Positions 4,441 to 57,281 of a stretch of 64,000 bases of DNA are shown here, in pieces. The DNA lies in the IMG/VR virus record IMGVR_UViG_2868597578_000002. One strand, 5' to 3'. The notes under the pieces are model-generated. The model saw nothing but the letters and a program-made list of their open reading frames with translations. It searched no databases and was not told where the DNA came from. This stretch comes from a virus (lineage: Duplodnaviria; Heunggongvirae; Uroviricota; Caudoviricetes). A program made the translations under genes and the position numbers. How positions within the stretch are numbered: the stretch's first letter is position 1; every line of letters starts with the position of its first letter.

Positions 4441-4749
4441 ATTCCCGCACCTGCAAGCAAAAGAAAGGAAGAAAAATAATGAGGAAAATCAAAAGAAAAA
4501 AAGGATATGCAGAGAAAAGACTGCAAAAACATATACATTTGCATAAAGTATTTTGACTTTCTTGCAAGCTACCGCTTCGCGGCAGCTTTTTTGCCATATT
4601 TGCTGAAGCCTTAAGAATTCTCGCTATGTGCAAAGACTAACCTGGAGAATCATCTCCAGGTTTTTTGTTCGCAAAAAACGAACGGAAATCAAAAGATTCT
4701 GCATATTACAGTTAGAAAAAAAATATAGCAGAAAGGAAACAATAGAAAA

Positions 4750-7162: not shown

Positions 7163-7256
7163 CGGCTGCCTCTTATTTTGCATACAGAGAAAATTGTGCG
7201 TATTTCAGGAAAGAAATTCTGCATATTGTAAATATAAAAAAGAAGGAGGAAAAGAA

Positions 7257-18906: not shown

Positions 18907-20775
18907 ATGGCAGAAAATTATTTAATTGGGATGGCAGAGGAAATCAAATCATATATTCCCGGCACATCAAATATTGAAGAGGGGGACAGCAAGATTACGA
19001 TTAATGCAGAATTAAAGACAGGCATTAAAGGTATAAGCGTTGCGATTGAGTGCGCCCCAAATACAGTAAAAATCAAAGGTACGCAGGAATATAAGTATCC
19101 GATTTCCGAAGAATCCGTAGAAGAGTTCCAGCAGGAGATGATGGAAAAATATTCCGGATGCAATGTGTATGTAAGCGGCCAGGTATTTGCATTTTCAAAG
19201 TTTTTTTCATACCAGACAGTAGAAGAAGCAGTAAAAACAACAGAAGAAATCATCGATGCGATGCAGGACGCAGTGGTGACATTTGAGAACGACTGCGTAA
19301 ACTTTCTTGAAAAAGATGTTGAGGCCAAAGAGGAAGACTATAACCCGGAAGAAAACGTAAATCTTGTACACGTGGATAATGCATACCATGCGGTATCAAC
19401 TACGATGCAGGATACAGAGGACTATGAGGAAGAACATCGCAAATTTGCGGAAAAAATTTTCTGTGATTTAGCAGCTGAAATTGGTGGGACATTAAATGGA
19501 AATGAAGTTATCCTCGCCGACAAAAAAGAAAAAATTACAACAGACTGTATTTTTTTACCTCTGGATGCGGAGATTCTGGTTTCCGTATCTACTCCGGCAG
19601 ATAATGATGCCGGCACGATATATGTTTCCTACATCAATGCAAATTATCCTGAATTGATGGCTGCTTATGACGCAGACAATGAAGTATTCAAAGTAAGAAC
19701 GTATTCAAGCCCAGACAAATACGCACCGGATGAAACAAAAGAGCGTCTGGATTTATGTAGAACGGCTCTAGTTGCATGCATGAAGGAATATGAAAGAACG
19801 CTAAAAAAGAAAGATTCCGCGGACTTTGCGTCAGACGTACAGCAGATTTTGTCAGAACAGACAGCAATGGTATCTGAGCGAGAGAAGGCTGTCGCTGAGC
19901 GTGAAAATGAAATGGAACAGAAAGAAAAAGAGATGCAGAAAAAAGAGGCAGAACTACAAAAACAGGTTGCTGTATTGGAAGAAGAAAGGGCTGCACTTCA
20001 GGAGAAAATCAAATCAGAAGAGGCGAAAGTAAAAGAGCATGAAGAGGAGATGCAGAATAAAATCAAAGAATATGAGGAAAGGGATACAAAAAATATACTG
20101 AATCTGCAGCAGCTCGCAAAGCAGCTGGCTGCATTGCAGGATAGACAGAATGCCCTGGGAAAAACTGATAACGAAGCGGAAGAAGAAGTGTTCAGAATGA
20201 AGCAGAAAGTACAGCAGCTGGTAGGACAGAAGATTGCCTTGGAGAAAAAATTAACAGAAAAAATTGTCACAAAAGAATCAAAAATCAAAGAACTCTCTGA
20301 TTCCATTGGAAAGAAGGACCGTGAAATCAAAAAGATTGAAAGCAATATTGAAGACATGGTCAAAAGCCAGGTAGCAGATGAAGTTAAAAAAGTAGAAGAA
20401 CGCGCGGAAAGTATCCAGAAGCAGCTGGACGAAATCGGGCATATCCTGACGCCGGAGGACCTGATTTCTTATTATGAGCAGTATTCCGATGCTGAAATCA
20501 AAAAATTCCATGCCCCAAATGCAGAATTTGTTGTATACAATGACGGGGCTCTTGAAGTTAGAATCCGTATCGGAGAGACAAACTACGTTGAAGTATCAAG
20601 AAGCGCAGCGCTAAAAGACCAGATTCTGAGGAAACTTAACACAAAGTACAATGATGTCAAATTTTACAGTACAAAAGATGACAGGATTGCAGCAAGGTCA
20701 TATTTTAAGAAAAATGCCGCTGCTGAAGATGTCGACGACATTGTAGCATCATTGTCTGAAAATTTCAAAAAATAA
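18907..20775 (+). CDS. Hypothetical protein with a central long coiled coil (622 aa)
   Basis: The E/K/Q-rich heptad region (residues ~310-480) is flanked by globular N- and C-terminal domains. RBS aaaggagaaagaaataATG. Confidence 0.5.
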   Translation: MAENYLIGMAEEIKSYIPGTSNIEEGDSKITINAELKTGIKGISVAIECAPNTVKIKGTQEYKYPISEESVEEFQQEMMEKYSGCNVYVSGQVFAFSKFFSYQTVEEAVKTTEEIIDAMQDAVVTFENDCVNFLEKDVEAKEEDYNPEENVNLVHVDNAYHAVSTTMQDTEDYEEEHRKFAEKIFCDLAAEIGGTLNGNEVILADKKEKITTDCIFLPLDAEILVSVSTPADNDAGTIYVSYINANYPELMAAYDADNEVFKVRTYSSPDKYAPDETKERLDLCRTALVACMKEYERTLKKKDSADFASDVQQILSEQTAMVSEREKAVAERENEMEQKEKEMQKKEAELQKQVAVLEEERAALQEKIKSEEAKVKEHEEEMQNKIKEYEERDTKNILNLQQLAKQLAALQDRQNALGKTDNEAEEEVFRMKQKVQQLVGQKIALEKKLTEKIVTKESKIKELSDSIGKKDREIKKIESNIEDMVKSQVADEVKKVEERAESIQKQLDEIGHILTPEDLISYYEQYSDAEIKKFHAPNAEFVVYNDGALEVRIRIGETNYVEVSRSAALKDQILRKLNTKYNDVKFYSTKDDRIAARSYFKKNAAAEDVDDIVASLSENFKK

Positions 20776-24192: not shown

Positions 24193-24489
24193 ATGCGAAA
24201 AACAATGTATTCAGCAATGAAAAATCTAGCAGAATATATTGCCGGGAACGAAAGTTATGACTTTGAAACTATCTGGAAAGAATGGAGTTCCAAATATAAA
24301 CCATTAGAAGAAACTACTAAAGAATTAAAAAAGATGGGAGAAAGTTTATGTCAGATAGATAAGAGTGACATCAAATCGGTGCCGGAGAGGAGCTATCGTG
24401 AAACTATAAAAAAGATGTTAAAGCCAGAAATCAACAAGGAGGAGTTTTTTGATGGACACGTCAGTGACAAAGATGAATGCTGCCGATAA
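24193..24489 (+). CDS. Small hypothetical protein (98 aa) overlapping the start of the sigma-factor gene
   Basis: RBS gaaaaggaggccgaagaatATG at 24193. The ORF-track ORF 23914..24489 is an upstream extension. Overlaps the downstream sigma gene by ~38 nt, suggesting co-transcription and coupling. Confidence 0.4.
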   Translation: MRKTMYSAMKNLAEYIAGNESYDFETIWKEWSSKYKPLEETTKELKKMGESLCQIDKSDIKSVPERSYRETIKKMLKPEINKEEFFDGHVSDKDECCR

Positions 24490-25468
24490 TGCTCAACTAT
24501 TAGAAGAAAAGAAGGTAGTCTACAGTTCAAATGGAAAATACGACCCACAAGAGATTAATAAACTGGTCAAAGTATACCATATGGCGCTTGAAGCAGGCGA
24601 CAACGCAACGGTGCAGGACGCATTTACGCAGATATACTATTTTATCAAAAATTACGTTTATAAAACACTTTGGGATAACTATCGCACACTTATGCAGAAC
24701 AGATATCACCAGGAAGACATTGTTCAAGATGTGTGGATTAAGATTTTTTCGGAATTAAAAAATTACGACCCTGACAAAGGTGCTATCACTACGTTCATAG
24801 CGCCATGGATTCGTCATGTGGTAAGCGATTATGCAAGCAAAAATTTCAGGAAAACCTCTGTGTATTATGCGAATGCCATGAAAAAAATCAATGGCGCACA
24901 GAATTACTGTAAACAATATGGATTAAATGCAGATGACATTGAGACAATCATGAGCCTGACAGGGCTGTCAGAAGCGACCGTAAAGAATACTCTTGATTTA
25001 ATGTCAAAAAAAGACAGCGTCTCATACGAAGCATTAATTGATGCGGGCGCAGACTATACAGCATCAATTAAAGGACCGGAAGAATCTGTTATTGAATCAG
25101 AATCAGAGGAAAACTTAAAAACAATCCTTAAGGATGTATTGACGGATGAAGAGCTTAATCTCTTAGAACTGTTGTTAAATCCTGAGAATTCAAGTAAAAA
25201 GCACTCCAGCTATCGTGAGATTGCAGAACAGATTCCAGGCAGTAATATTCCAAAAGTAAAACGTAAGATATCACGCATTACCACAAAGCTAAAAAATAAT
25301 AAACAGTTTGCACAATTGTACCCTTATATTATCGCACAGGAAAAAGCATTGGAGGATAATTACATACCAGTCATGGGTGATGATGGGAATGAAGATGACG
25401 ACATGTATGAGGAGTTCGATGACATGGACATGTCGGAAGGATGGAAAAGAACGAAAAAAAATAAGTAG
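24452..25468 (+). CDS. Sigma-70 family RNA polymerase sigma factor (element-encoded)
   Basis: Region 2-like DIVQDVWIKIF...FIAPWIRHVVSDYASKN (compare FxxYAxxWIRQAI). C-terminal region 4 HTH ...SYREIAEQIPGSNIPKVKRKISRITTKLK. Acidic C-terminal tail. Confidence 0.7.
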   Translation: MDTSVTKMNAADNAQLLEEKKVVYSSNGKYDPQEINKLVKVYHMALEAGDNATVQDAFTQIYYFIKNYVYKTLWDNYRTLMQNRYHQEDIVQDVWIKIFSELKNYDPDKGAITTFIAPWIRHVVSDYASKNFRKTSVYYANAMKKINGAQNYCKQYGLNADDIETIMSLTGLSEATVKNTLDLMSKKDSVSYEALIDAGADYTASIKGPEESVIESESEENLKTILKDVLTDEELNLLELLLNPENSSKKHSSYREIAEQIPGSNIPKVKRKISRITTKLKNNKQFAQLYPYIIAQEKALEDNYIPVMGDDGNEDDDMYEEFDDMDMSEGWKRTKKNK

Positions 25469-25479
25469 CCTGTCATACA

Positions 25480-25812
25480 GGCTCATGATACCGCGAGCTA
25501 TGCTCAGCTATGCTCGCTTGTCAGCCTCTGCGAGGCTTGGTAACGAAGGCGCTAAGCCTGAGTTATCATTTTTAATCTGGTACCGAATCCAGCAAGGCCG
25601 GTGAGGCATCATATTCATTCTGGTACTGAGTGCGAAACACGAAGTATCATTTTTAATCTGGTGCCGAGCCAATACGGCGAGCGGCGAGGTATCAATTTAT
25701 GCTGGTAACGACTCCGGCAAAGCCGGGGAGTTATCAATGAAATCTGGTAACGAGTCCTGCGAGGCAGGCGAGTTATCAAAGTTGGACGAGGGCTTTCCTC
25801 CCGTCGATGGTT
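25480..25812. repeat. Array of five or more tandem family-1 hairpin repeat units plus a terminal family-3 hairpin
   Basis: Units of ~42 nt: tctggta(a/c)cga-N-tcc + variable short hairpin (ccggcaaagccgg, cctgcgaggcagg, ...) + gagttatca + 5-8 nt spacer. Ends with ggacgagggctttcctcccgtcgatgg followed by a T/A-run. Confidence 0.6.
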
Positions 25813-25845
25813 TTTAAAAAAAATAAAAAAAATCCGTCCGGTTCA

Positions 25846-25864
25846 CAAATTATTCTGCATATTG
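25846..25864 (+). promoter_or_regulatory. Conserved GCATATT motif copy with no downstream ORF (drives candidate ncRNA)
   Basis: caaattattctgcatattg. The next RBS-preceded ORF is 1.5 kb away. Confidence 0.45.
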
Positions 25865-25869
25865 ATTCT

Positions 25870-26745
25870 GATGATACAGATGACAGCCAGGAATTTTGCA
25901 AAAAGTCCTGAAGGACCTTACTGATATTGTACAAAGAAGCGAAAAAAAGAAATAAAAAGAGACAGGAGATTCGTGGAAATATCACGCGGTCAAATTGAAT
26001 ATTGAGGTGTCACCTCTACCAAGAGGACGTTAATTATTATTTTTTGCATAAAGATAAAGAGAGGAAAAACAAAATCAGCAAAAATAATAAAAAAACGTGA
26101 TGAGAACGAGACATATGCTGCAGTAATGCAGAGCAAGGACCAATCTGGTTGCTAAAACAACGTTAAGTGTTGCCGAGCGGCAAAAGTCGAGCAGGGAGCG
26201 GAGAAAATAGTTTGGTCTTAGACTATCCGATGACCTAAGGGGGTGTAGTGCGTTGCAAGCCCTTTGCCTAATACGTAGTTGTATGCGTAAGATGCGAAAG
26301 CACGGGTGAAAGCCTGGTTAAGAGTAGGACGCGGGGGAGTTTGTGGACAACGGAATCCGCGGGAATAAAGACAAACTGTATATACAGTTGATGTAATAAA
26401 ACCGCAACAGGAGGAAGTGAAGCACAGATGCACAGACAGCTTGCGGGCTGCCGGGACCTGTAGGATGATGGAAACATCATGGCGTGTGGGATGTGCCATA
26501 GATTGTACAGAAGAAATGTATAATTTAGACTACGCCAAAATCAGCACGACTGATTTGAACTGCAGGGTTGCGCTTTCCGATAAGCTCTTCGATAAGTTTT
26601 TCGATGAGTGCGACTGCTATCTAAGACCGTCATGATGTGAAGCGACCGATTCCGACGGGCTACATAAAATCTGAGCAGAATGGCATAGCGTTATCCTTCT
26701 TCCGCGCAGACGCATACCATTATAGGGAGAGTCTGCGCTTTTTCG
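25870..26745 (+). ncRNA. Candidate large structured non-coding RNA (or non-coding control region)
   Basis: GCATATT motif at 25857-25863 with no ORF downstream. 0.9 kb lacks any RBS-preceded ORF. A GC-rich core (26160-26600) has many hairpins, some GNRA-capped (gatgatg-gaaa-catcat, cacgggtgaaagcctgg). Ends at a strong terminator gcgcagac-N19-gtctgcgcttttt (26702-26744). Confidence 0.3.
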
Positions 26746-27010
26746 CAAGGAGAAACTATGTCAATCTGCTCAGCTCCCTCCTCCTCTGGGCTGCATGGCG
26801 GCCTTTGGCCGCCTTTCAAAACGTAAGGTTACGAAATATAAATTTACTTTTTTCAAAGTGTAACGTTGAGATGGCAACAGGAAATGCAGCCCATTAACGA
26901 AGGGTGTGATTTATCCGGTAAAGCGACATTACGCATCGTAATAACACTCAACATGCCAAAACTTTTAGAATATATGAATCACGCCCGCACTAACGAAAGA
27001 AAAAGCTGAG

Positions 27011-27156
27011 ACAAGACATGCACACTGCAAAATCTTCATATATCTGGAACGCGAAGATACTGGATATCACGATATATATGAATTTTAAGAAAACTTATAG
27101 GATATCCAGTATCGGAGCGGATAGAACCTTCCGCGATTTTGCAGTGCATGTCTTGT
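27011..27156. other. Long nested inverted repeat (cruciform-capable), followed by an AT-rich direct-repeat tract
   Basis: agacaagacatgcacactgcaaaatc (27011-27036) pairs with gattttgcagtgcatgtcttgtct (27133-27156). Nested gatactggatatc / gatatccagtatc. Followed by ttttttatatacgttttttatatac (27193-27220). Confidence 0.5.
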
Positions 27157-27371
27157 CTCGAGGTCAGAGTAATCGGCTTGCCGATTAGGATGACCTCCAT
27201 GTTTTTTTATATACGTTTTTTATATACAAATACACTGTTCTTCCAAATATTTATCATATTGTACATAGAGAACCGGGACACAAACAACGTGTCTGCAACA
27301 ACTGGCCATTGTATCAGCACTTCAAATTCCTGTTTCGGTTATCGGCAACAAAACACACAGGAGGATAAAAT

Positions 27372-28436
27372 ATGTTTTTTGTTATAGTTATTCTAGTAAT
27401 AATCATTGTATTCCTGGCGAACCAGATACGTATCGTCCCTCAGCAGGCATGCTACATTATTGAGCGCCTTGGAAAATACAGCACAACGTGGGAGGCTGGC
27501 CTGCATGTGAAAGTTCCAGTCATTGATAAGATTGTAAAGAAAATCTCCATCAAGGAACAGGTGTACGATTTTCCGCCACAGGATGTTATCACAAAAGATA
27601 ACGTCACAATTAGTATCGATTCTGTCGTGTATGCAAGTGTTTTCGACCCAAAATTGTATACATATGGGATTGAGAAACCTATCACTGGTTTACAGAATTT
27701 GACAGCCACGACTCTCAGAAGTATTATTGGCGCCATGGAATTAGACCAGACACTGTCTTCGAGGGCAGATATCAACCGCCAGATGCAGGATGTGCTTGAT
27801 GAAGCAACTGATGAATGGGGTATTAAGGTATCACGCGTGGAGGTCAAAAATATCAAGCCACCGAAAGAGATTGAAGAGGTCATGACAAAGCAGATGAGGG
27901 CTGAGAGAGAAAGACGCCAGACCGTATTGGAAGCACAGGCACATAAAGAATCTGTAGTATCCAGGGCAGAAGGTGATAAGCAGGCGAAACTGCTTGACGC
28001 AGAAGCTGAGAGAGACGCAAAAATTGCTCTTGCGAAAGGTCAGGCGGAGGCTATCAGGCTTGTATATGAAGCAGAAGCAGAAGGACTTAGAAGGCTTGCG
28101 GAGTCAGGCGTAAATGAAAATATTTTACGTTTAAAATCTATTGAAGCGATGAAGGATGTGGCCGATGGCCGGGCTACAAAAATCTTTATCCCAAATAATC
28201 TGGCAGAAGGTGTCGGGCCTGCAGCGATTGCCGGCGAGGCTTTTTGGGGAGCAACAAAGGAACCTAAAAAGGAATTCTCAAATGCCGAAGCGGAAAAAAT
28301 CCGAAAAGAAAGATGCGTCAAAAAGACGGTGTCTGAGGATGCCTGCATGAAAGCACCAAGGACGAAAGTAAGTATGCAGTCGGCGATGACTAATGCGGGA
28401 ATGGTCCATGATATGCATAAGGACGAAACTGACTGA
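27372..28436 (+). CDS. SPFH/band-7 domain protein (stomatin/prohibitin/HflK-like)
   Basis: N-terminal TM, then the canonical SPFH domain (IVPQQACYIIERLGKY...GLHVKVPVIDKI...ISIDSVVYASV...). A/E-rich coiled-coil C-terminal part. Confidence 0.8.
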   Translation: MFFVIVILVIIIVFLANQIRIVPQQACYIIERLGKYSTTWEAGLHVKVPVIDKIVKKISIKEQVYDFPPQDVITKDNVTISIDSVVYASVFDPKLYTYGIEKPITGLQNLTATTLRSIIGAMELDQTLSSRADINRQMQDVLDEATDEWGIKVSRVEVKNIKPPKEIEEVMTKQMRAERERRQTVLEAQAHKESVVSRAEGDKQAKLLDAEAERDAKIALAKGQAEAIRLVYEAEAEGLRRLAESGVNENILRLKSIEAMKDVADGRATKIFIPNNLAEGVGPAAIAGEAFWGATKEPKKEFSNAEAEKIRKERCVKKTVSEDACMKAPRTKVSMQSAMTNAGMVHDMHKDETD

Positions 28437-28594: not shown

Positions 28595-29449
28595 ATGGCA
28601 AGACATAATTATGTGAGTGTTCTTGCGCTGGTACGAAAGGAACCAAAATTCAAAGACACAGTTGACGGAAGAGCCGGAATCGTTGGTCTTACAACGATTA
28701 TGAGTGGAAGAGAGTACGACAAGGCTACAAGCGGTTATCAATTAAACAGTGTTTCTTTTTGTGCCAGAACACAGGAAAAAGAAATCCTTGATGTGATGGA
28801 TACATTGCAGTTATGGGATGTTGTAAAAATGACAGGATTTTTAGCAACAAGAGAAAAAGATAAAAAAGCAGAGTGTCCGTTTTGCAATGCGGTCAACCGA
28901 AGAGTTGATGCATGCGTAAGAAACGGAAAGCCAAAATCCGGTGGTAATGAGATTTTTGTATATCCAATTACGCTAAGAGTAGAGGAGAAGTTTGAAACCG
29001 AACAGGCAGCGTACGAGTATCTGCATGCAAACGAAGAGGATGCAAACCGTGTGTTTGTGCTTGGTAATTTAACAAACTCTCCTATCCACGGGGAGCTGCA
29101 GGGAGGACGAAAGCCGTATACAAGATTCCAGCTGGCTATCAACCGTAAGTATTGCCCAAAGGGCGGAAATGAAATGTACGAAAGGACAGACTATCCGTGG
29201 GTGTATTCTTATGGCGACAAATCTATCGAAGATTACCAGAATCTTGAAAAAGGTGCCCTCGTATTTGTAGATGGCGCCCTGCAGGCAAGAAAATTTAAAG
29301 AACAGTACACCTGTGGAGTATGCGGCGAAGAGTATGACGTAAGGGGAAGGACACTGGAAGTCCTTTCATACGATACAGAATATCTTAGACTTCCGAACCT
29401 GGCTCCGGATGACGAAGAAGACGATGATGAGAACGAAGATTCAGAGTAA
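28595..29449 (+). CDS. Tandem OB-fold SSB-like protein with zinc-ribbon insertions (putative ssDNA-binding protein)
   Basis: NYVSVLALVRKEPKFKDTVDGRAGIVGLTT and NRVFVLGNLTNSPIHGELQGGRKPYTRFQLAINR both follow the SSB OB-fold N-terminal pattern (N-x-V-x-L-x-G-x-L-x-x-x-P-...-F-x-LA). CxxC...C pairs. Acidic DDEEDDDENEDSE tail like SSB C-tails. Confidence 0.45.
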   Translation: MARHNYVSVLALVRKEPKFKDTVDGRAGIVGLTTIMSGREYDKATSGYQLNSVSFCARTQEKEILDVMDTLQLWDVVKMTGFLATREKDKKAECPFCNAVNRRVDACVRNGKPKSGGNEIFVYPITLRVEEKFETEQAAYEYLHANEEDANRVFVLGNLTNSPIHGELQGGRKPYTRFQLAINRKYCPKGGNEMYERTDYPWVYSYGDKSIEDYQNLEKGALVFVDGALQARKFKEQYTCGVCGEEYDVRGRTLEVLSYDTEYLRLPNLAPDDEEDDDENEDSE

Positions 29450-44951: not shown

Positions 44952-47900
44952 GTGAAAAGGATGTTGCCAAAAGAAGAATATATAAGCTTATTGGCCAATC
45001 TGTTTCAGAGAGGTTTATGTCTGGATATGATAGATATAGACGGAAAACAGGATTCCCCAGATATATCAGACGAGGAAAGGATTAGCTTTAAAGCGGCAGA
45101 TGAGGCTTTAAGCAGAGTTGACCTGGATGAACTTTTTGATAATGCGGAAATTTTAGAAATTCCAGATAAGTATCCGGAATTTTATGAATATCTGCGAGAA
45201 CTTCAGCTTGAGAGACAAGAAGATGGACATGGTGAAAGAACCATTGAGGATGTCTCTGCAGATGAAGAGGTAGAAGAGGGCGAAGAGGAGCCAGGACCGG
45301 AAGAGCCACAGGGGCTTTCAACGAAAGACCGAGTTTTAAAGAATATCGTAGATGGAGAACATACCGGAAACCAGAGAGACAGTGAGAAATACCGAAAAGG
45401 TGACGAGATGCGGGCTCGTCTTGACGAAGAACGCCGTGAAGCATTGTCTCGTGCTGCGGAACAGGAGCGATATGATAATGAACATCGTATGTCTCTGGAA
45501 TCCAAACTTGAAGACGAACGTGGAGAGGCCATAGCCAGGGCTGAAGAACAGCAACGGCAAAGAGAAGCTTTAAGGCAAAAGGAACTGGCTGAGAGACCTG
45601 AAACAACTGTTAATATTACAAGTATACACGATAAGAGTAAAAGTGCAGATGGTGTTACAAATGTGGTGAAAGGTAATATTCCAGACGAATCGACAAAACA
45701 CAATGAGAGTAAAACTCAGTATTATGAACCAGATACGTTTAACGAAGAACGGGAAATCCATGACCGGCAAGAATCCGCCCATGAGTCAAATACTTCAATT
45801 TTAACTTCTCACGAGGGGTTGAATCCACGTTCAGCGTCTGGGTACGAGCGCGAAGCTCGAACTATCAATAAGCCGTCTGATTTGTATCAGCAGATGCAGA
45901 CCAAGGACAATGACACATTATCAGATGCACAAGACAGGTCGCATAAGTATGATAAGAGAGATGAAAGGCCGGAGCCTGAAAAGAAAGATAATAACAGGTC
46001 TGCGACAAATGAGTATTCTTCTCGTATCACAAATGACTATGCGGAAAAAGATTCCCATATTACAGAAGACATAAATAGAACTGGTCCTCAAGTATTTGAA
46101 CCAAAGCGGGAAAATGTAGAACAAATATCTGGTCATGAAGAACTTAACACGAAAAGCGCTCAGGATGTAAGTCATGTTGTAAAAGGAGATACTTATTCTG
46201 ATTTTTTTGAACAGGACAGACCCGAGGTAAGGGATGAAAGAAATCGTGCAGACGTTCATAACGAATCAAGGTGCCAGTCATCGCGGGGAATCCGTGAGGG
46301 TTCGGTGGGTGCTGGCATACTTGACAGGAAGAAGGCTGAGGATACGGCTCAATATCATTCAGAGGCAGGCTCAGAAGCGGCAGTAGATAATACAAGAAGG
46401 ACTGAATCGGAAAACAAATATATATCTGATTCGTATGAAAAGTCTGGACAAAGAGATACCGGTGAAACTTATAAGCGCCATCAATATGACGAAGGTTATG
46501 GTGGTACTGATAAGGAAAACCGTTTATATGAAGCTGAGAATAGCCATACAAATCGCAATACTGAAAGGGTTGGGCCAAATCAAGGCAGTGAATATAACGA
46601 AGGTTTTATATACAAGAAGGATGCCGGTATAAACAAACACACGGAGTCAGAGGGCTCTATTGTAGAAAAACGCAGAGAGCATGACACAGAAGATTATAGA
46701 AGCACACAGGGATTCGATAAGCCTAATAGCAGTGAACCGTATAAAGCGAGCAGCATTCCTCAGCATGAAAAGGAATCAGTATATGACGGGAATGCCATCA
46801 GTAATCCAGACTCAGGAAACGCATCAAATGGAACCGCACAATATAAAAGAGAAGCATCAGAAAGTAAAAAATACATTAATGATTCATATGAGCAGGCTGG
46901 ACAACGGGAATCTGCTGATATTCAATCTCACAAGGGTACCGGTGAGGATACATACGCATCGTTTAAACCCAAGACATATGATTCGGTGAACTTGCGTTCA
47001 CCTTCACCAGACGTGGACGGGGTTTCTAGCTCCACGTACACGTCTGGTGACCTCCAGACCGACGGGCAACCGAAGGTTAACCGCGGTTTCCCGTCCATCG
47101 ATGATGCTACTAAGAATGAAGACCAATCTTCGTCATTCGTAGCACGGAATGAAAGAAGAACCTATGACGCCACAGCGAATAGTACAGACAGCATCGCCAG
47201 AAAAGAAAATGGAGATTCACACTCTGTCTTAAACTCTGGCGCAGATAAACGTCCGTCTGCTGAACCGGCTTCAGAAAATGCAAAAAGATATGTAGGCAGT
47301 TCATATGAAATGGCTGGACAGAAAGAAGCCGAGCGTAAAGACCGTGGTTATGAAAATCTGGAAAGACAGGGGCTTGTGGATAAGCCTACAGGAAGTGTGC
47401 AGCCACCATTCTCTGACGGAATTGGAGAAGTAGAAAAAAAATATGAAAAGAGTAGTACAAGAGAAATTAGTGCATCAGAGGTGACATCTAGGCGTCAATC
47501 TGCAGTAGATGATTTATCTAAAAGTGAAAGGTTCCAGGCCGATAACATTGTCCGAAGACCAATCTCTCAGATGCCAGATTCACATACTGCCTCGAATCAA
47601 TATCCAGGACTAGATGGGGACAGTCACCAGCCTTCCGAAGCAAAAGCAATGGTGTATGACCGGCAGCAAGATGTAGGTAACCATCGGGATGAAAAGCCTG
47701 GAGCGAGTGTTGTTGAAGAGGTTCTCAGGAATAGGGCTGCTAATCAAGAAAATCAAGATGCGGATAGGCCGTCTGGCGGCATCACTGAACGAAAGCAGAC
47801 ATATAGCAGGGATTCATATGAATCTTCAGGACAGGCCCCAGTAGATGAGAAGAGGAAAGAACCATACGGCCAAGGAGAGACCTATAGCTACGTTGGCAGA

Positions 47901-50900
47901 AAGGATGGACAGGCTGACAGAAAAGTCGCCGAAAACCGTGTCTTAAAGTCTGATAAAACTGATGTGGTGTATCCACAAAAGAGAAGTTCTTCGGTTGCGA
48001 GTGAAAGTAAAAATGGCCTTCAATCTATCAAAAAAAAGGACGAAACGAAAGTTATTGAAATCCCAGTACCGTCAGGCTCAGGCCAGACGCATACTGTACG
48101 AGGTGCTGTTGCCGGAGCTGCAGCTGTAACTGCAGTAGCAGCCGCGTTAGCGGCAAGAGAAGCTGCAAAGGCCACCTCTGATGCCGCAAAGACTGCTACA
48201 GACAAAGCGGAAGGTATGGTGATGCTGAAAGATACATCAATCATGTCGGCTAGCGAACTTGCTGCATATGCCAGTGCAGTGAACAGTGCGCAGGCAGCAA
48301 CGCAGATAAGCGGAAAACAAATTGCCGATTCCTATGCTTTGGCAGGTCAGGCTGATGCAGAAACGATAAAGATGAATGTAGAGCAGGCCCTTGCAAATGC
48401 GAGAGAGATAGCAGCGGGGACTCGCTCCGGATTGAACGTTCCAGGTGCTATATCTGGCCCAGTGGGGCCAGCCTCATCTGGTGCAACACAGAATTTTAAT
48501 ATAACGAGACCGTCTATACATACACTGGGAATTCCAGGCGTCGTAAAGAACTCAAATTTCACAGACGTTGGGATGTTTGTCCTAAAAGAAGGAAATCAGG
48601 TAACTATATCCAGAAATGGAAAATCAAAAAGATACACAGTCCGTTCTGACGGGACTATCAGAATAGATGGAATTGTATTGAACGTATATTCAGTAGACAA
48701 AGACAGAGCTTTTGTTGGTTGGAAAAACGCGGCTGTATATGGCGGCAAGATTTATACGGCTACAGGCACTGTCCTTGATATAAGTACGGATGGAAGCATA
48801 GGAACGACCAAAACGTTGGCTGGCCTGGAATTCCATATTAAAAGAGATGTTAAGGTCAATGCAAGACAAATGACAATGGCGATGACAATAGCCCCGGCAT
48901 TAAACCAGCCTATTACAGACGCAGATTTTGTGAAAGTTGGAGATAAGTTTATATCAAACAAAGTAACAGAATCGTATAGTGGACTTTTATACCAGAAAGC
49001 ATTAAACAAAGGCAAAGTCTCTCAACTTATTTTTAAACAAAAAATGGCAATGCATTCAGTCTTTCGAGCACAGCTGCTTGCAGGTGCAGCAGCTAATATG
49101 AAGTCGATTGATTTGAAATTAGACCTAAATACGCTGGTTGCAAATTACGATAAAATATTGACATCAATCAGTGGAAACAGCAAGCAGTTTTATCAAATGA
49201 ATGTGTTTTTGGAAACACGCTATTTGAGCGATATTGAACGTCAATATCTGTTTGACGCAAAGGCAAAACTTAAACACCTTGGTCTTACTGAGAATACAGA
49301 TACATTAAAAGAACTTCTGGCTGGCGGCGGATTGTCTCCAGAAGCAGCAAGTGCAATAACGGATTATCTGAATGTATATGAAAATACAAGAGAAAAAATT
49401 ATACGAAAGGGTGTGCTCGGGGACCAGAGCGTAGGCGATTTCAAAGTAGAAAGAGCGTTTTATGCTGCTGCGCTGCCATATGTGCTTCAGGCAAGGGGGC
49501 TTCCATCAGATAAAAAGGCGTTAAAAAAATTATTAAAAGCAGGAACAACTTCAAAAGAAACGAAAGAGTTGATAAGAAATGTATTTAAACTGCAAAGAAG
49601 GATGTTTTTGCTTAATTTGACAGAAACAACATTAACGGCATATGCCAAAGGTGCTGTCAAAGCGGTTAAAAATGGATACCGAAAAATAAAATCATTGGCT
49701 AATAGATATATGGGCGATGATTATACGATGCGAGGACTCCTCATGATGGAGTCAATCATTGTTGGCTCTGCTATGAAAGCGTATCGTACATCAAGAAAAA
49801 TAAAATGGATGAGAGAGAACGCTGGAAGGTTGCTAAATTCCTCAATCAGGCTTGGAAAGTCAATAGGGAATGCTGCGGTCGCAGGATATAGAGGTGCAAA
49901 AGCCGGTATTCATGCAGTTCATATGGGCGGAAGAGCGGCGAGAAAAGGCTTCCAGTATCTTAGAAAAAACGGACTTAAAAAAACGCTAAAAAAAGGTGTA
50001 AAAAAATTACGGATGAAAGGCACGAAAGTTGTCAGAAAAGGCGTTTTAAAAGTTGCCAAAGTAGCGCAAAAGGCCGCGATTAAAGCAATCCAGGCTGCGA
50101 TAAAGTTGATACAGACATTGATTTCAGCATTAGTAGCAGCATTAGGGCCTATAATCATAGCATTGATTATTGTATTGGCAATCATCCTTTGCATTATTTC
50201 ATATGTGAAGAACGCAGGAAATGAAGTCTATTATGATGCAGGCGATGAAGACACTACTGAAGTTTTACAAGAAATGGTTGACGTCTTAACCTTGTGTCAC
50301 AATTCGTTCAGAAGTGAATTATCGAATCATTTTGGTGGAACGTCAAGCACAGGCTCGGCGTCTGGTACAGATGGCTCAACGATGAATGCACCACAGCTAC
50401 AAAAGGGTGATAGTTCTAAGGTTCAGGGGTTATATGATGTGACTGAGGGGACCTGGTGGAATTATGAGTTTACATACCAATATATTCATGGTAATTGGGC
50501 TTCCGGAACACGGCAACAGGCGTTGGATAACAAGGTAACAGTTGAAGGCAATGGAAATTACGCTGTCGTCGACCAGAACGGAACAAAGATGTATATGGCG
50601 GCTTTTGGCTCGTATTGGGGAAAAGTAGGAGATGTCCTTAAAGTGGAATTTAATAACGAATTCACAATAGGCAGTCAGCCTGCATCCAATACTATGTACA
50701 TTATTATTGCGGATGAAAAGGCTTGGAAAGATACTGGTTATCCAGCAGAGCAAGAAGGAATATATGGACATCACTTAGGAAGCCACCGAGATTTTGCAGA
50801 ATTTATTGGTTATGGCTCTAAACCTGCAGGATTGAATGGAAATGGATTGATTCCTACTACTGCAACAAATATGGGAAGCATCCTGGATGGGACATTTGAT

Positions 50901-52406
50901 TCATCAACGATTGGCACTGGGGCAGCTGCTTCGTCGGTAAGCGTAAATGCCGATATCCTGTATCGTCAGGAAATAGACCAGGATGTTTATCGTGATATTT
51001 TAAATAGGGATAAAAACATATACTACACTTTTCCGGAAGAGCAAAAAGTACCAGATGGTATTACCCCAACACCTACTCCGGAAGGATATGTAAAAGCAGA
51101 TGCAAAAGGTGAAGTGTATGGATTCTATAATAATAATCAAGAGCTGATTTCTATGGTAATGGCTATGTTTGATTTTGAGGCAAGTTCTAGTACTTCAACA
51201 AAAAGCACAATCATTAGCAAAAAAGATGCTTCCGGCTTTGACGAGGCAAAAACAAACGACACATATCAAAAAGGTATGACGGATAAAGAAGTTGATGATA
51301 AATGGAAGCTGATAGAATACCTGAATGAAAAAGGCTTAGACCTGACAAATTACAAAGCAGGCGGCTATGATGATTTGAGATATTCGGCTTTGATTGGTCT
51401 TTTTAATGCTTCACATATTATCACGGGAACAGCCGTTAAGCAGTACCATGCAGGCCCAGACGGAACAATCAATCCAGTATATAACGATGATGGAAGGATT
51501 GTTGGTCAAAATAATACCGATGGTATGTCTTATCAAGTGCCGGTTATGGAAACGAAGACAAGACAAGTCAGAAACGAACACGGAGATATCCAAATCGAAT
51601 ACTACACCGGATATAAAACGGACTCGGATGGAAACATCGTTTATGAAACAAAGTATGCACCGTGTCCGGGCCATACAAAGTACAGTGGAGCAGTTATTAC
51701 CCTGCATTTTGATAGTCTGTTAAATCTTGATGACTGGTGGGAGAAAAACATCTATGGAGTAGATGATTTTGATAAGGAAAACCCTAACTATGAAAGCAGT
51801 GACGCAAGTGCAGATACATATAGAGCTAAAGAGAATACGCTAAAACGTACAATCCAGTATATTAAAAAGCCGGATTATTATAAGAGTCTGAGTGGAACAT
51901 GCTCAGAAGGAGAAAACTCTACCACAGACAGTTTCAATCCTGGAACGTGGGATGGAGACCAAGCAAAAGTTGCTAAAGAAGTATATGAATTCCTGACAAC
52001 AAAAATGTCGAGAAAATTAACCTCTGAACAGGCAATGGGAGTATTGGTAAATATCTATAGAGAATGCTCATTCAATTATACAGAAGAAGAAACTGGCGGT
52101 ACTGGATATGGCTTAACTCAATGGTCGTTTGGACGCAGAACAAAACTTGTTCAATGGTGTAACGCAAATGGATATCAGTACAATACGCTTGAAGGCCAGC
52201 TAAAACGTTTGGAATGCGAATTTACGGAAGATACGAGTGATTGGTCCCCGAGCGGAGTAGAAGGATTCTATGCATGTACGACTGCAAGAGAAGCAGGCGA
52301 ATTCTTTATTACGAATTACGAAAGGCCTGGTGCACAATATAAAGCGCAGCGTTTAGCCGAGATGGATTCAGATATCGCTACTATTCAGGCAATGTTACAG
52401 TCGTAA
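44952..52406 (+). CDS. Giant multidomain membrane protein (2484 aa) with a C-terminal lysozyme-like (phage-tail-lysozyme/VirB1-like) domain
   Basis: RBS gggaggtgaaaaggATG. Charged low-complexity N-terminal ~1000 aa with five copies of YxxDSYExxGQ. TM segments near residues ~1060 and ~1740. C-terminal ...GVLVNIYRECSFNYTEEETGGTGYGLTQWSFGRRTKLVQWC resembles lysozyme-like domains of conjugative-element cell-wall hydrolases. A family-3 hairpin repeat is embedded in frame at 47058-47104. Confidence 0.6.
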   Translation: MKRMLPKEEYISLLANLFQRGLCLDMIDIDGKQDSPDISDEERISFKAADEALSRVDLDELFDNAEILEIPDKYPEFYEYLRELQLERQEDGHGERTIEDVSADEEVEEGEEEPGPEEPQGLSTKDRVLKNIVDGEHTGNQRDSEKYRKGDEMRARLDEERREALSRAAEQERYDNEHRMSLESKLEDERGEAIARAEEQQRQREALRQKELAERPETTVNITSIHDKSKSADGVTNVVKGNIPDESTKHNESKTQYYEPDTFNEEREIHDRQESAHESNTSILTSHEGLNPRSASGYEREARTINKPSDLYQQMQTKDNDTLSDAQDRSHKYDKRDERPEPEKKDNNRSATNEYSSRITNDYAEKDSHITEDINRTGPQVFEPKRENVEQISGHEELNTKSAQDVSHVVKGDTYSDFFEQDRPEVRDERNRADVHNESRCQSSRGIREGSVGAGILDRKKAEDTAQYHSEAGSEAAVDNTRRTESENKYISDSYEKSGQRDTGETYKRHQYDEGYGGTDKENRLYEAENSHTNRNTERVGPNQGSEYNEGFIYKKDAGINKHTESEGSIVEKRREHDTEDYRSTQGFDKPNSSEPYKASSIPQHEKESVYDGNAISNPDSGNASNGTAQYKREASESKKYINDSYEQAGQRESADIQSHKGTGEDTYASFKPKTYDSVNLRSPSPDVDGVSSSTYTSGDLQTDGQPKVNRGFPSIDDATKNEDQSSSFVARNERRTYDATANSTDSIARKENGDSHSVLNSGADKRPSAEPASENAKRYVGSSYEMAGQKEAERKDRGYENLERQGLVDKPTGSVQPPFSDGIGEVEKKYEKSSTREISASEVTSRRQSAVDDLSKSERFQADNIVRRPISQMPDSHTASNQYPGLDGDSHQPSEAKAMVYDRQQDVGNHRDEKPGASVVEEVLRNRAANQENQDADRPSGGITERKQTYSRDSYESSGQAPVDEKRKEPYGQGETYSYVGRKDGQADRKVAENRVLKSDKTDVVYPQKRSSSVASESKNGLQSIKKKDETKVIEIPVPSGSGQTHTVRGAVAGAAAVTAVAAALAAREAAKATSDAAKTATDKAEGMVMLKDTSIMSASELAAYASAVNSAQAATQISGKQIADSYALAGQADAETIKMNVEQALANAREIAAGTRSGLNVPGAISGPVGPASSGATQNFNITRPSIHTLGIPGVVKNSNFTDVGMFVLKEGNQVTISRNGKSKRYTVRSDGTIRIDGIVLNVYSVDKDRAFVGWKNAAVYGGKIYTATGTVLDISTDGSIGTTKTLAGLEFHIKRDVKVNARQMTMAMTIAPALNQPITDADFVKVGDKFISNKVTESYSGLLYQKALNKGKVSQLIFKQKMAMHSVFRAQLLAGAAANMKSIDLKLDLNTLVANYDKILTSISGNSKQFYQMNVFLETRYLSDIERQYLFDAKAKLKHLGLTENTDTLKELLAGGGLSPEAASAITDYLNVYENTREKIIRKGVLGDQSVGDFKVERAFYAAALPYVLQARGLPSDKKALKKLLKAGTTSKETKELIRNVFKLQRRMFLLNLTETTLTAYAKGAVKAVKNGYRKIKSLANRYMGDDYTMRGLLMMESIIVGSAMKAYRTSRKIKWMRENAGRLLNSSIRLGKSIGNAAVAGYRGAKAGIHAVHMGGRAARKGFQYLRKNGLKKTLKKGVKKLRMKGTKVVRKGVLKVAKVAQKAAIKAIQAAIKLIQTLISALVAALGPIIIALIIVLAIILCIISYVKNAGNEVYYDAGDEDTTEVLQEMVDVLTLCHNSFRSELSNHFGGTSSTGSASGTDGSTMNAPQLQKGDSSKVQGLYDVTEGTWWNYEFTYQYIHGNWASGTRQQALDNKVTVEGNGNYAVVDQNGTKMYMAAFGSYWGKVGDVLKVEFNNEFTIGSQPASNTMYIIIADEKAWKDTGYPAEQEGIYGHHLGSHRDFAEFIGYGSKPAGLNGNGLIPTTATNMGSILDGTFDSSTIGTGAAASSVSVNADILYRQEIDQDVYRDILNRDKNIYYTFPEEQKVPDGITPTPTPEGYVKADAKGEVYGFYNNNQELISMVMAMFDFEASSSTSTKSTIISKKDASGFDEAKTNDTYQKGMTDKEVDDKWKLIEYLNEKGLDLTNYKAGGYDDLRYSALIGLFNASHIITGTAVKQYHAGPDGTINPVYNDDGRIVGQNNTDGMSYQVPVMETKTRQVRNEHGDIQIEYYTGYKTDSDGNIVYETKYAPCPGHTKYSGAVITLHFDSLLNLDDWWEKNIYGVDDFDKENPNYESSDASADTYRAKENTLKRTIQYIKKPDYYKSLSGTCSEGENSTTDSFNPGTWDGDQAKVAKEVYEFLTTKMSRKLTSEQAMGVLVNIYRECSFNYTEEETGGTGYGLTQWSFGRRTKLVQWCNANGYQYNTLEGQLKRLECEFTEDTSDWSPSGVEGFYACTTAREAGEFFITNYERPGAQYKAQRLAEMDSDIATIQAMLQS

Positions 52407-55149: not shown

Positions 55150-56310
55150 ATGGATTTAAAAGCATTTAATACAGCACAGGAAATTATTGCATGTAAAAAC
55201 CCAATGGTGTCACACTGGGTCATTGCTGTTGATATTGGTTTTTCAGGAGTAAAGGGAATGTCTCCGAATAAAAGGTTTTGCTTTCCGTCTTATGTTAAAC
55301 AGATTGAAAGCAATCTGATGTCGGTAGATGAAGAGGATATCTATTATAGGGATGAAGAAGGCCTGTATATGATTGGAACAAAAGCACAGGACCTTGTCCG
55401 AGCCGATGATACTAACGATACAGGTTCTACGTTTGACAGAAACCGATATTTTACAAAGGAATTCATCATTCTTGCCAGGACGGCTGTAGCTATCGGATTG
55501 ATGAGCAATGAAGTAAGAGAGGGAGGGCCACAGATTAAGCCATTTATCCAAACTGGACTTCCAGCCGCATACCTGAAAGCAGATGCGCCGAAAATCAAAA
55601 GCGCATTCACAGCACAGGGTGTTTATGAGGTAAAAATCGGTACTGGTAGATGGATTCGTTTTGAAAACAATTTAAGAAATAGTGATGTGAGCGTCATGTC
55701 TCAGCCAGCCGGAACCTTAAATTCCATTCTGTTCAATGATGAAGGAGAACGACGAGATGAAGCTAAAGAATTGATGGCGGAAAATATCATCATCGCTGAT
55801 ATTGGATTTGGCACGTTTGACCCATACGGAATCATCAATAGGAAGAAGGTTTTGGAGGAATCTATCAACAATCTCGGAATGAAACGAGTATTGGAGACGG
55901 CGGCTGAGTATATTTTTAAAGATTATCAGATGGATATCCGTATTCCACAAATGAGGAAATACATGAAAGACGGATATTTCAAGGTGGTTGATATCCGGCA
56001 GATGACCAGTAAAAAAATCCCGTTGGACGGATACATTGAAAAGGCGTGCAAGGAAGTGGCAACGCAGGCGGCGAAGAAACTGTATGAAATGGCAGAATAT
56101 TTCACCGATTACGATGTACTTGTTGTGACTGGTGGAACCGGTGCAGCATGGATTCAATATTTCAGGGAGACGTTATCAGGATTGGAAGATTTGAAGATTA
56201 TTCCTGGAAACGATGGAAACGAGCTTCCAATTTATTACGCAAACGCAAGGGGATATTATATGTCCGCTTATAGACGATTGAGAAAAGAGAGGACAGGTAA
56301 AAGTGAATGA
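55150..56310 (+). CDS. Actin-like ATPase of the ParM/StbA/Alp family (plasmid segregation)
   Basis: Phosphate-1 VIAVDIGFSGVKG, phosphate-2 IIADIGFGTFD and adenosine VVTGGTGAAW motifs of the actin fold. Confidence 0.65.
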   Translation: MDLKAFNTAQEIIACKNPMVSHWVIAVDIGFSGVKGMSPNKRFCFPSYVKQIESNLMSVDEEDIYYRDEEGLYMIGTKAQDLVRADDTNDTGSTFDRNRYFTKEFIILARTAVAIGLMSNEVREGGPQIKPFIQTGLPAAYLKADAPKIKSAFTAQGVYEVKIGTGRWIRFENNLRNSDVSVMSQPAGTLNSILFNDEGERRDEAKELMAENIIIADIGFGTFDPYGIINRKKVLEESINNLGMKRVLETAAEYIFKDYQMDIRIPQMRKYMKDGYFKVVDIRQMTSKKIPLDGYIEKACKEVATQAAKKLYEMAEYFTDYDVLVVTGGTGAAWIQYFRETLSGLEDLKIIPGNDGNELPIYYANARGYYMSAYRRLRKERTGKSE

Positions 56311-57281
56311 TGAAGGTAGAAGTAAAACTGTATTCCTATCATGACATGGACCTGGTTGGCCTGTATAAAACAGGGAAAGTTTCCTTTCCTGAAACAACCA
56401 GGCAAGTACTAAATTCTTATGCCCGTGGCGAAGTGTATAAAGTCAAATTATTACACACGAATGATAAAAGGCTCGCCAAGTATCCAAAGACGAGCTTCCG
56501 GAAGTATTATCACTATCATGTGGTACTGGATGGAAAGGAAGACTCTGATGCGATTTCCTTGCTGCATAAAATAACACCAGGATACAGAAACAATTTCATT
56601 AAAGTCGTACTACGTCAATATCTTTGCGGTGTTTTTCTTGAAGAGTACTGTGTCAATGGGGATACATCGTTTTTCAATGAAATGTCACGAAAATTTCAGG
56701 GTGGAAGAGATGAGAAAGAAATAAGACAGACAAAAAAAGAAAGAGATAAATGCACCCAAACAGAACTCAAAAGCCCTGATGTGACGACGAGAACTTTAAT
56801 AGAATCTGGTAGCGAGTCCGACTTTGTCGGCGAGTTATCAATAGAATCTGGTAACGAATCCGGCAGAGCCGGCGAGTTGACAAAAGCAGCAAGCAGAGGA
56901 GCTAAACTAAAAGAAAAACAAAAAAAAGGAATAACAGATGACACGGTTGACACTGATGAACGGAGTTTATGGGACAATGTAAAAGATGAGAATGAATCCA
57001 GGTATGTTGAGCTGCCTACAGAAAAGCATGAAGCAGAACCAGCAGATATCGTAAAAAATACTGAACACAAGGCCCTGATAAATGATAAGGCAAAGAGTAT
57101 TGAGCCTGGCTCCAAAGATAATAACAACAAGATAAAAGAAGATTCATTCGAATTGTCAAACAATAAAACCATGACAACCGCACACACTGACGCACATCCA
57201 AATATAGCGAATAGCGTTCAATCCTATAGCGATGAGGATGATTTCGACGAGTTCCTTGACGAAATGACAGAACAATATTAA
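56307..57281 (+). CDS. Hypothetical protein downstream of parM-like gene (possible segregation adaptor); contains in-frame family-1 repeats
   Basis: Start overlaps the upstream stop (tgaATGa). Nucleotides 56790-56885 are two family-1 repeat units translated as ESGSESDFVGELSIESGNESGRAGEL. The adaptor role is speculative. Confidence 0.35.
   Translation: MMKVEVKLYSYHDMDLVGLYKTGKVSFPETTRQVLNSYARGEVYKVKLLHTNDKRLAKYPKTSFRKYYHYHVVLDGKEDSDAISLLHKITPGYRNNFIKVVLRQYLCGVFLEEYCVNGDTSFFNEMSRKFQGGRDEKEIRQTKKERDKCTQTELKSPDVTTRTLIESGSESDFVGELSIESGNESGRAGELTKAASRGAKLKEKQKKGITDDTVDTDERSLWDNVKDENESRYVELPTEKHEAEPADIVKNTEHKALINDKAKSIEPGSKDNNNKIKEDSFELSNNKTMTTAHTDAHPNIANSVQSYSDEDDFDEFLDEMTEQY

Follow-up and report, generated by a model that had tools for sequence, protein, structure and literature searches.

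Bacterial RNAs as large and structurally complex as the one considered here are rare. Large RNAs with a known role (ribosomal RNA, RNase P RNA, and group II introns) perform sophisticated biochemistry, and the function of OLE, GOLLD, and ROOL is still unknown. GEBRO (RF02988; 'GC-enriched, between replication origins') is a 350-nt motif of small streptococcal rolling-circle plasmids, for which its authors (Weinberg et al. 2017) considered a possible role in replication or as single-stranded DNA (ssDNA), with action as ssDNA between the single- and double-strand origins suggested for pUA140 (PMC5737381). 'Hodor' conjugative megaplasmids of gut Bacillota have been described in a 2026 preprint, which makes no mention of the RNA and whose five uses of 'non-coding' refer to putative origins (PMC12934698). 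Here we analyze a 64,000-nt stretch of DNA (the window; IMG/VR record IMGVR_UViG_2868597578_000002). The host element matches a Hodor-like conjugative megaplasmid of gut Bacillota, the GC content of the window being ~40% as compared with 44.6–47.1% reported for Hodor. The core of a non-coding gap in the window (25469–27371) is likely a stand-alone gene for a large structured non-coding RNA.

The gap lies between a sigma-factor-like open reading frame (ORF; 24449–25468, + strand; Sigma70_r2, only region 2 detected) and an SPFH/Band-7 ORF (27372–28436, + strand). TAA, TAG, and TGA each recur in all six frames of 25469–27371, ruling out a recoded gene, an alternative genetic code, and a hidden ORF. 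A first-pass annotation of the window had reported that no ORF preceded by a ribosome-binding site (RBS) occurs here. Indeed, the gap contains no protein gene and all frames are stopped, but it does contain a 22-codon ORF with a perfect Shine-Dalgarno sequence, which is not conserved. A decayed protein gene, also considered at that time, is not supported either. Two relatives (L011 and L083) carry a 203–204-residue Ig-like ORF inside the corresponding gap, but tblastn finds no trace of these ORFs in the window gap, and the idea that the gap is their decayed remnant is rejected.

Homologues were sought by blastn, DNA pattern scan, and nhmmer. Ten near-identical sister plasmids retain the entire gap (alignment A1), and only a hairpin array and a 13-mer, both described below, vary among them. 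More distant relatives were reached via SPFH homologues, a DNA pattern scan of metagenomes, and a second pattern in species-representative genomes. The homologues of the RNA represent seven diverged lineages (A–G) of gut megaplasmids, with one copy per locus (nhmmer). Lineage A is the window type, and A′ (L011) is 90% identical to it. The core of lineage B (L018/L020 type) is ~72% identical. Lineage C is represented by L013, D by L061 and L075, E by L079 and L081 (Bacillota/Clostridia contigs of metagenome-assembled genomes, MAGs), F by L083 and a variant with an extra inserted hairpin (L084–L086), and G by L087–L089. At least three gene contexts are seen: in A, C, and F, the RNA separates the sigma gene from SPFH; in B, it follows orf289 and a glycosyltransferase gene; and in G, SPFH lies 6 kb upstream of it. 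The unit is therefore not bound to one gap and behaves as an independent module rather than the leader of a particular gene. None of the eight tested ORFs of a lineage-B locus (L033), which flank the RNA on both sides, has a homologue in the window.

The distribution of the RNA is narrow. No copy is present near the SPFH homologues (60–72% identity) of other elements with a type IV secretion system (T4SS; L015–L017 and L090–L098), the gap has no blastn match in phage and plasmid collections, and IMG/VR scanned with the sigma protein and three DNA patterns gives nothing. Among 185,579 species-representative genomes, the RNA is absent except from the two lineage-E MAG contigs; the first pattern finds nothing there, and the second finds these two contigs and three chance matches.

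The alignment of the lineages is anchored by invariant segments (GUCAC; GUGAUGA(G/A)AACGAGA; AACGUUAAGUG; CC.AAGGGG; GCCUAA; UGGUUAA..GU.G...GCGGGGG; CGUG.GGG). Between the anchors, hairpins occur at the same places with stem sequences that differ by lineage. The arms of eight helices (H1, H3, HU, Pc, H4, H5, P3-inner, and P3-outer) were taken per lineage by anchor-based extraction. Each helix has three to seven different stem sequences, and its own arms pair in every lineage. Own arms form far more stable duplexes than the 5′ arm combined with the 3′ arm of another lineage (-6.4 vs -0.9 kcal/mol for HU, -6.3 vs -1.1 kcal/mol for H5, and -5.7 vs -2.8 kcal/mol for H4), and no cross pair of HU or H5 reaches the own-arm mean. 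G·U pairs make up 39 of the 288 pairs (13.5%). In none of the eight helices does the opposite strand have the greater mean stability. In an excised-core alignment of eight sequences, 94.2% of the cells of the Pc/P2 pseudoknot are paired, as compared with 25–58% with slid partners. Three of its pairs are changed on both sides, and none of 500 shuffles reaches the observed pairing or covariation score. The unit thus possesses the feature by which structured non-coding RNAs are generally recognized, conserved helices with compensatory substitutions in diverged homologues; in all, ten helices retain their pairing in this way.

Two further observations point in the same direction. Folding of 26100–26750 is strand-asymmetric: the + strand has a z-score of -3.6, whereas that of the - strand is -0.2. 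The nucleotide diversity of 26097–26500 among the eleven near-identical plasmids is 0.006, lower than the 0.009–0.032 at third codon positions of all flanking genes, showing purifying selection on the GC-rich pseudoknotted core. The unit, conserved in seven lineages, is single-copy, non-coding, covarying, and constrained, and its pairing is confined to the + strand; it would correspond to an RNA gene of 0.9–1.35 kb. The proposal in the first-pass annotation of a large structured non-coding RNA, reaching from a GCATATT motif to a terminator, thus finds support in homologues, covariation, strand asymmetry, and sequence constraint.

The RNA is composed of an AT-rich 5′ domain (25870–26096), a GC-rich core (26097–26345), and a 3′ domain with lineage-variable hairpins (26346–26681), all on the + strand. 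GC content is 0.45–0.56 over 26100–26500 and 0.29–0.35 in the flanks, in accordance with the GC-rich core described earlier. In the 5′ domain, hairpin H1 (CCUCU-ACCA-AGAGG, 26013–26026) follows the conserved GUCAC; it has five different stem sequences in five lineages and pairs in all of them. The core begins with the invariant block GUGAUGAGAACGAGAC (26097–26112) and continues with a second invariant block (26159–26169, the anchor AACGUUAAGUG), helix H3 (26171–26193), and hairpin HU with a U-rich loop (26207–26226). The pseudoknot follows, with Pc formed by 26239–26244 and 26258–26264 and P2 formed by 26249–26253 and 26329–26333. Helices H4 (26272–26289) and H5 (26304–26315) and the invariant block UGGUUAAGAGUAGGACGCGGGGGAG (26315–26339) complete the core. 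The segment had been thought to start near a GUGCG at ~26248; this GUGCG is internal, being the 5′ strand of P2 with its partner at 26329–26333. The 3′ domain includes a hairpin with a GAAA tetraloop (26464–26481), followed by the conserved CGUGUGGGAUGUGCC (26483–26497). Beyond the closing helix P3, a C-rich tail (GCUCCCUCCUCCUC, 26773–26786) lies with a GC hairpin and a spacer in 26763–27007, which may be a read-through part of the RNA. The hairpin previously placed at 26797–26816 is present as GGCGGCC-UUU-GGCCGCC at 26797–26813.

Some lineage-F plasmids carry an extra ~60-nt GC-rich hairpin between H4 and H5 (L084–L086:7800–7895) that is not found in L083. The H4–H5 junction is a tolerated expansion site, because lengths differ at this same junction in all lineages.

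Pairing confined to one strand would also be seen if the conserved structure worked as ssDNA, as a strand-specific single-strand-origin or priming signal in the recipient or in lagging-strand synthesis. The module of the RNA encodes, besides the sigma factor, a single-stranded DNA-binding protein (SSB) and a beta-clamp-like protein, and in lineage G also a DnaG-like primase, and the authors of GEBRO proposed ssDNA action between the origins of pUA140 (PMC5737381). However, a promoter motif is found directly upstream in every lineage and hairpin-plus-U-run terminators are found downstream, G·U pairs reach the share given above, the GAAA tetraloops are conserved, and all flanking genes are coded on the + strand, which is hence transcribed anyway. 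We consider the ssDNA reading unlikely and an RNA gene the better explanation.

The 3′ end of the RNA is closed by helix P3 (26682–26762, + strand), which encloses a terminator hairpin (26704–26738) and its U-run (26739–26743). The first-pass annotation had correctly recognized an intrinsic terminator at 26702–26744. Its stem is formed by GCGCAGAC (26704–26711) and GUCUGCGC (26731–26738) and is followed by U5; a consensus scan misses it because of the 19-nt loop. In P3, GGCAUAG (26682–26688) and UCUUC (26695–26699) pair with GGAGA (26749–26753) and CUAUGUC (26756–26762). The arms have four to six different sequences over six lineages and are complementary in all. The 3′ strand reads AGGUAUG..CUAUAC in lineage F and AGGAGAGA..UUUGUAA in lineage G, each with a matching 5′ strand.

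Along the 3′ strand of P3 lies AGGAGAAACUAUG (26748–26760), a perfect Shine-Dalgarno sequence with an AUG that opens the 22-codon ORF (26758–26826, + strand). Lineages A, A′, B, C, and D all carry AGGAGAAACUAUG unchanged, but the ORFs that follow it in A, B, C, and D share neither sequence nor length (22, 39, 24, and 18 codons). The 22-codon ORF is probably not a gene, and a type I toxin is rejected, as the peptides are not hydrophobic and show no conservation. The motif at this position pairs, in every lineage, with a pyrimidine tract and CAUAG upstream of the terminator hairpin. In lineage F the motif is AGGUAUGAACUAUAC and its partner GUAUAG..CAUACCU; in lineage G the motif is AGGAGAGACUUUGUAA and its partner UUACAGAU-UCUCUCCU. 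Lineages F and G thus lack the AUG and keep the helix by compensatory change, indicating that AGGAGAAACUAUG serves as a structural strand and that no translation start is conserved here. What looks like a perfect Shine-Dalgarno-AUG can therefore be a strand of a structural helix.

This result bears on whether the unit is a long cis-regulatory leader, a riboswitch or attenuator that would act through the terminator and through sequestration of the Shine-Dalgarno sequence and AUG by P3. The arrangement of a terminator followed at once by AGGAGAAACUAUG, itself paired with the upstream pyrimidine tract, is what suggests such a leader, but the structural role of AGGAGAAACUAUG is evidence against a riboswitch-type leader, and so is the lack of relationship among the short ORFs. 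Moreover, the downstream gene is not constant (A, C, and F have SPFH, B has unknown ORFs, and G has a 78-residue ORF with HipA), and a further 500–800 nt of non-coding sequence and a separate promoter always intervene. A leader is accordingly improbable, more so than a signal in ssDNA.

The gap carries three rightward units: the 3′ untranslated region (UTR) of the sigma gene, the structured RNA, and the SPFH gene's own promoter. The RNA is preceded by the promoter-like motif AAATTATTCTGCATATTG (25847–25864, + strand), a T-rich tract with T(G/C)CATATT(G/A); the GCATATT noted earlier is found at 25857–25863 within TTATTCTGCATATTG (25849–25864). The motif precedes the RNA in lineages A, A′, B, C, D, F, and G. 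In lineage E, which comes from another kind of element, a canonical TTGACA-N18-TAATAT takes its place, oriented the same way. Across the window, TGCATATT is found at eight + strand sites and a single - strand site. Of the + strand sites, six are intergenic and a seventh, at 7220, is just upstream of an RBS-ATG inside a mechanically called GTG-start ORF. Members of the motif family on the + strand are located at 4700, 7220, 8043, 13918, 24133, 25856, 27254, 28514, 29504, 33825, 55066, and 58197. They lie upstream of many genes, often after a terminator and often followed by ..ATAGAGAA, and have no clear -35 element. The SPFH gene has its own copy (AATATTTATCATATTGTACATAGAG, 27246–27270, + strand; variant TCATATTG at 27254), which is of the same family as the motif at 25847 and is conserved in L011. 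We infer that the motif is a plasmid-specific promoter class, and the sigma factor at 24449–25468 may be the reader of T-rich + TGCATATTG promoters.

Hairpins followed by a U-run, as in intrinsic terminators, are present at 26704–26738 with U5 and at 27160–27197 with U7. The second is an 18-bp imperfect hairpin followed by CAUGUUUUUUU (27160–27210, + strand), and both terminator stems are maintained by compensatory change in L011. As judged from these elements, transcription would proceed rightward from the promoter at 25847–25864, possibly read by the sigma factor encoded just upstream, with a start near 25870. Some transcripts would end at the P3-enclosed terminator (~26745), giving ~0.9 kb, and others would read through a long hairpin to the second terminator (~27210), giving ~1.35 kb.

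The long hairpin corresponds to the nested inverted repeat described in the first-pass annotation, with outer arms at 27008–27034 and 27135–27159 and inner 13-nt arms at 27056–27068 and 27101–27113. The outer arms are 27 and 25 nt in the window copy and a perfect 27/27 in the sister plasmids, and most A-type plasmids have both outer and inner arms perfect. The window copy is unlike that of all sisters, with a T-to-C change in the left arm (27021–27025) and a 2-nt deletion in the right arm (27146–27147) that creates a bulge. In A′, at least six positions differ on both arms, all of them compensatory. Among nine versions of the long hairpin, all one-sided substitutions leave a + strand G·U and never an A·C (p roughly 0.01–0.03, assuming that both outcomes are equally likely). 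Together with the terminator directly after it, the + strand G·U changes favor an RNA hairpin over a DNA cruciform. Only A and A′ have the long inverted repeat; other lineages carry different long hairpins downstream. A miniature inverted-repeat transposable element is rejected, since neither the window nor the loci contain a second copy, and a pseudoknot between the internal loop and the apical loop of the long hairpin is rejected because it is not kept in L011.

The AT-rich direct repeats formerly assigned to 27193–27220 are real, but the unit is a 13-mer, TTTTTTATATACG, present in 1.9 copies at 27203–27227 (+ strand) and overlapping the U-run of the second terminator. Two sister plasmids (L005 and L010) have a single copy.

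The first-pass annotation had raised the possibility that the gap is a vegetative or transfer origin, with the inverted repeat as a cruciform and the AT-rich 13-mers as an unwinding element. The length of the non-coding stretch, its inverted repeat with perfect 27-bp arms, and its AT-rich direct repeats are consistent with this, as are the replication and transfer genes nearby. However, near-identical plasmids differ in whether they have one or two copies of the 13-mer, lineages B to G lack the inverted repeat, and the one-sided changes of this repeat are exclusively + strand G·U. The cumulative GC skew, a check recommended earlier, rises monotonically over all 64 kb with no turning point, although this curve is confounded by the single gene orientation. 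A skew extremum with an adjacent initiator, the mark of a vegetative replication origin (oriV), is not found in the window. Neither Rep_3 nor another initiator occurs among the Pfam-scanned ORFs, the scans covering most, not all, ORFs of at least 100 residues, and none of the annotated genes flanking the gap is an initiator. In Hodor, the putative oriV adjoins Rep_3 and the putative origin of transfer (oriT) adjoins a MOBH-like relaxase (PMC12934698), and neither gene flanks the gap. An origin is therefore very unlikely.

A candidate for the MOBH-like relaxase described for Hodor plasmids is an HD-domain protein encoded, after a 204-nt gap, ~5 kb downstream of the RNA in a lineage-B locus (L033:8352–9455).

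We then ask whether the RNA belongs to a described family. A search of the Rfam 15 families, as the first-pass annotation had advised for group II introns, ROOL, GOLLD, and raiA, gives no match at gathering score in the 64-kb window, and at E ≤ 10 the gap yields noise only; lineages D and G give the same outcome. As far as these models extend, all four families are excluded. A group II intron is rejected, as there is no Rfam match and no reverse-transcriptase ORF and the GUGCG at 26248 is internal and paired with 26329–26333. ROOL (RF03087) and GOLLD (RF01998) are rejected, as neither model matches and the window contains 0 tRNAs. It is thus extremely improbable that the gap is a known RNA or a degraded gene, be it a group II intron remnant, ROOL, GOLLD, raiA, a recoded ORF, or a pseudogene. 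The GUGCG, the GNRA loops, and the Ig-like ORFs of L011 and L083 might have suggested as much, but the GUGCG is the 5′ strand of a covarying internal helix, all three stops occur in all frames, and the relatives' ORFs have left no tblastn trace.

The RNA nevertheless resembles ROOL, GOLLD, OLE, and raiA in kind. It falls within their length range of 0.6–1 kb, and its numerous helices, GNRA tetraloops, pseudoknot, and short invariant segments recall theirs; as with ROOL and GOLLD, its carrier is a mobile element. Unlike ROOL and GOLLD, it is not next to tRNAs, and unlike all four, it matches no Rfam model, is seen only in one group of gut megaplasmids, and is absent from the IMG/VR scans. It is a new RNA family within a known kind, the large structured plasmid- and phage-borne non-coding RNAs.

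We also take ColE1 RNA II to be comparable, as a long structured plasmid transcript beside replication functions, and ColE1 RNA II and ARRPOF presumably share with this RNA a G-rich invariant segment and a C-rich tract downstream. In contrast to ColE1 RNA II, no origin signature is found downstream, and pairing of the C-rich tail (26773–26786) with GAGCAGGGAGCGGAG (26189–26203) or GCGGGGGAG (26331–26339), judged by eye, is inconsistent across lineages. The ARRPOF motif (Fusobacterium pKH9) has no match in the window.

The relationship with GEBRO is more intricate. Both are GC-enriched structured islands in AT-rich non-coding DNA of Bacillota plasmids. Lineage E matches the 3′ third of the GEBRO model (positions 243–338) at 19.7 bits, with an E of 0.027 when 7.8 kb was first searched; the match is on the strand of the RNA and immediately 3′ of the core. 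By eye, the two share a block, GGUUAA..G....UCGCAAGACCU.CAA.AA, followed by a helix enclosing two hairpins (gCgC/GcGc in GEBRO and P2 here, also by eye). However, the gathering score of GEBRO is 284.7 bits and true members score 290–347 bits, so that the lineage-E match falls outside the family. GEBRO has no match in the window copy, even at E ≤ 10, nor in lineages D and G. The shared block has an nhmmer E of 0.85, and pairwise local alignment is no better than with shuffles. In addition, this RNA is 2.5–4 times longer than GEBRO and resides on conjugative plasmids of >200 kb rather than on rolling-circle plasmids of 5–8 kb, and the gap is flanked by sigma-factor and SPFH genes rather than by single- and double-strand origins. 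Kinship at the sequence level is not significant, and a relationship with GEBRO would be a lead, not a finding.

Several observations weigh against a stand-alone RNA gene. MAFFT/RNAalifold on whole segments recovers only Pc and one short helix, because the variable hairpins misalign; for this reason, anchor-based extraction and the excised-core alignment were used. Statistical power is modest, because there are seven lineages and most helix registers are hand-set. The eight arm-compared helices and P2 lie in the 5′ domain, the core, and P3. The promoter, start site, and 3′ ends are predictions from the sequence, and a sigma-70 consensus scan of the gap finds no more sites than in shuffles. The U-run of the first terminator is present in A and A′ but absent in B, and part of transcription therefore probably continues past this terminator.

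Upstream of the RNA, the 3′ UTR of the sigma-factor gene contains six tandem hairpin units (25539–25778, + strand), which the first-pass annotation overlooked. A unit is ~33 nt (UGGUAAC-GA-variable 3–5-bp hairpin-GA-GUUAUCA), with a tandem period of ~42 nt (38–44 nt); its lower stem pairs UGGUAAC with GUUAUCA and always includes a G·U, and above it come a GA/GA internal loop and an upper hairpin that varies between units. The folding z-score of the array is -4.2. Among 26 distinct unit versions, the G·U is always at stem position 3, stem positions 5–7 covary, and the upper stems differ with compensation. The copy number after the sigma gene ranges from 2 to ~8 among near-identical plasmids. 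Further units are present in the window at 18647–18716 and 56806–56877 and elsewhere at L013:6337–6404, L020:40–72, L083:539–571, and L033:11186–11214. The units lie on the coding strand, between stop codons and terminators, singly or in tandem. The two units at 56806–56877 are in frame within a 324-codon ORF (56307–57281) and read GSESDFVGELSIESGNESGRAGELT; either the ORF call is wrong there or a frame-keeping insertion is tolerated. The units are candidates for an array of RNA-binding-protein sites, an mRNA stabilizer, or an element like the repetitive extragenic palindromes (REPs).

The array presumably resembles REP-like extragenic palindromes and type III antitoxin repeats, a likeness that serves as a lead only. 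Shared features are short one-strand hairpins, tandem and dispersed, located between stop codons and terminators, with strain-variable copy number. In contrast to both, the upper stems of the array vary with compensatory changes; no toxin gene follows the array as in type III systems, and no RAYT-type transposase was identified beside it as for REPs.

The array is followed by a terminator-like hairpin, GACGAGGG-CUUU-CCUCCCGUC and then GAUGGUUUUU (25785–25816, + strand), which is invariant in 11 sister copies. The sigma transcript probably ends at this hairpin.

The genes of the window are all on the + strand. Besides a T4SS (VirD4 and VirB4), they encode a ParM-like ATPase, a topoisomerase, a RecD2-like helicase, TnpB, FtsH, SIR2, a sortase, and surface proteins. 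That the element is a plasmid is evident from the T4SS, ParM-like, and sortase genes. An ORF of 2484 residues occupies 44952–52406; Phage_lysozyme2 was found by scanning the giant ORFs of its relatives. In the SSB-like ORF (28595–29449), ~150 N-terminal residues without assignment precede the SSB domain (residues 151–237). In lineage E, at least seven tandem 18-nt units (TATATATCTTCTTAGTAG) lie downstream of the RNA and end the contig (L079, reverse strand, 1040–1166; L081:3060–3134). An element with an SPFH homologue at 61% identity and no copy of the RNA (L096–L098) encodes a Cas12a/Cpf1-like protein beside IS605 TnpA/TnpB and a sigma factor (15770–19468).

The constant neighborhood of the RNA and its resemblance to GEBRO lead us to suggest, tentatively, that it acts in trans as a stable RNA or ribonucleoprotein scaffold in maintenance or establishment of plasmid DNA. 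It is also conceivable, although we hold it rather doubtful, that it represents a new class of very large (0.9–1.35 kb) ornate RNA specific to Hodor-like megaplasmids and distantly akin to GEBRO, the two together forming a plasmid-borne superfamily with a direct biochemical role in replication or post-conjugation establishment. The plasmids that carry the RNA are very common in human gut metagenomes: the identical SPFH protein is indexed in 967 blocks of an assembly collection, all of its sample and contig labels that name a source are human gut, and contigs bearing these plasmids are 200–430 kb. A concrete candidate RNA gene is thereby placed in the DNA-maintenance module of an uncultured megaplasmid family, and it may offer a handle on the unexplained GEBRO motif.

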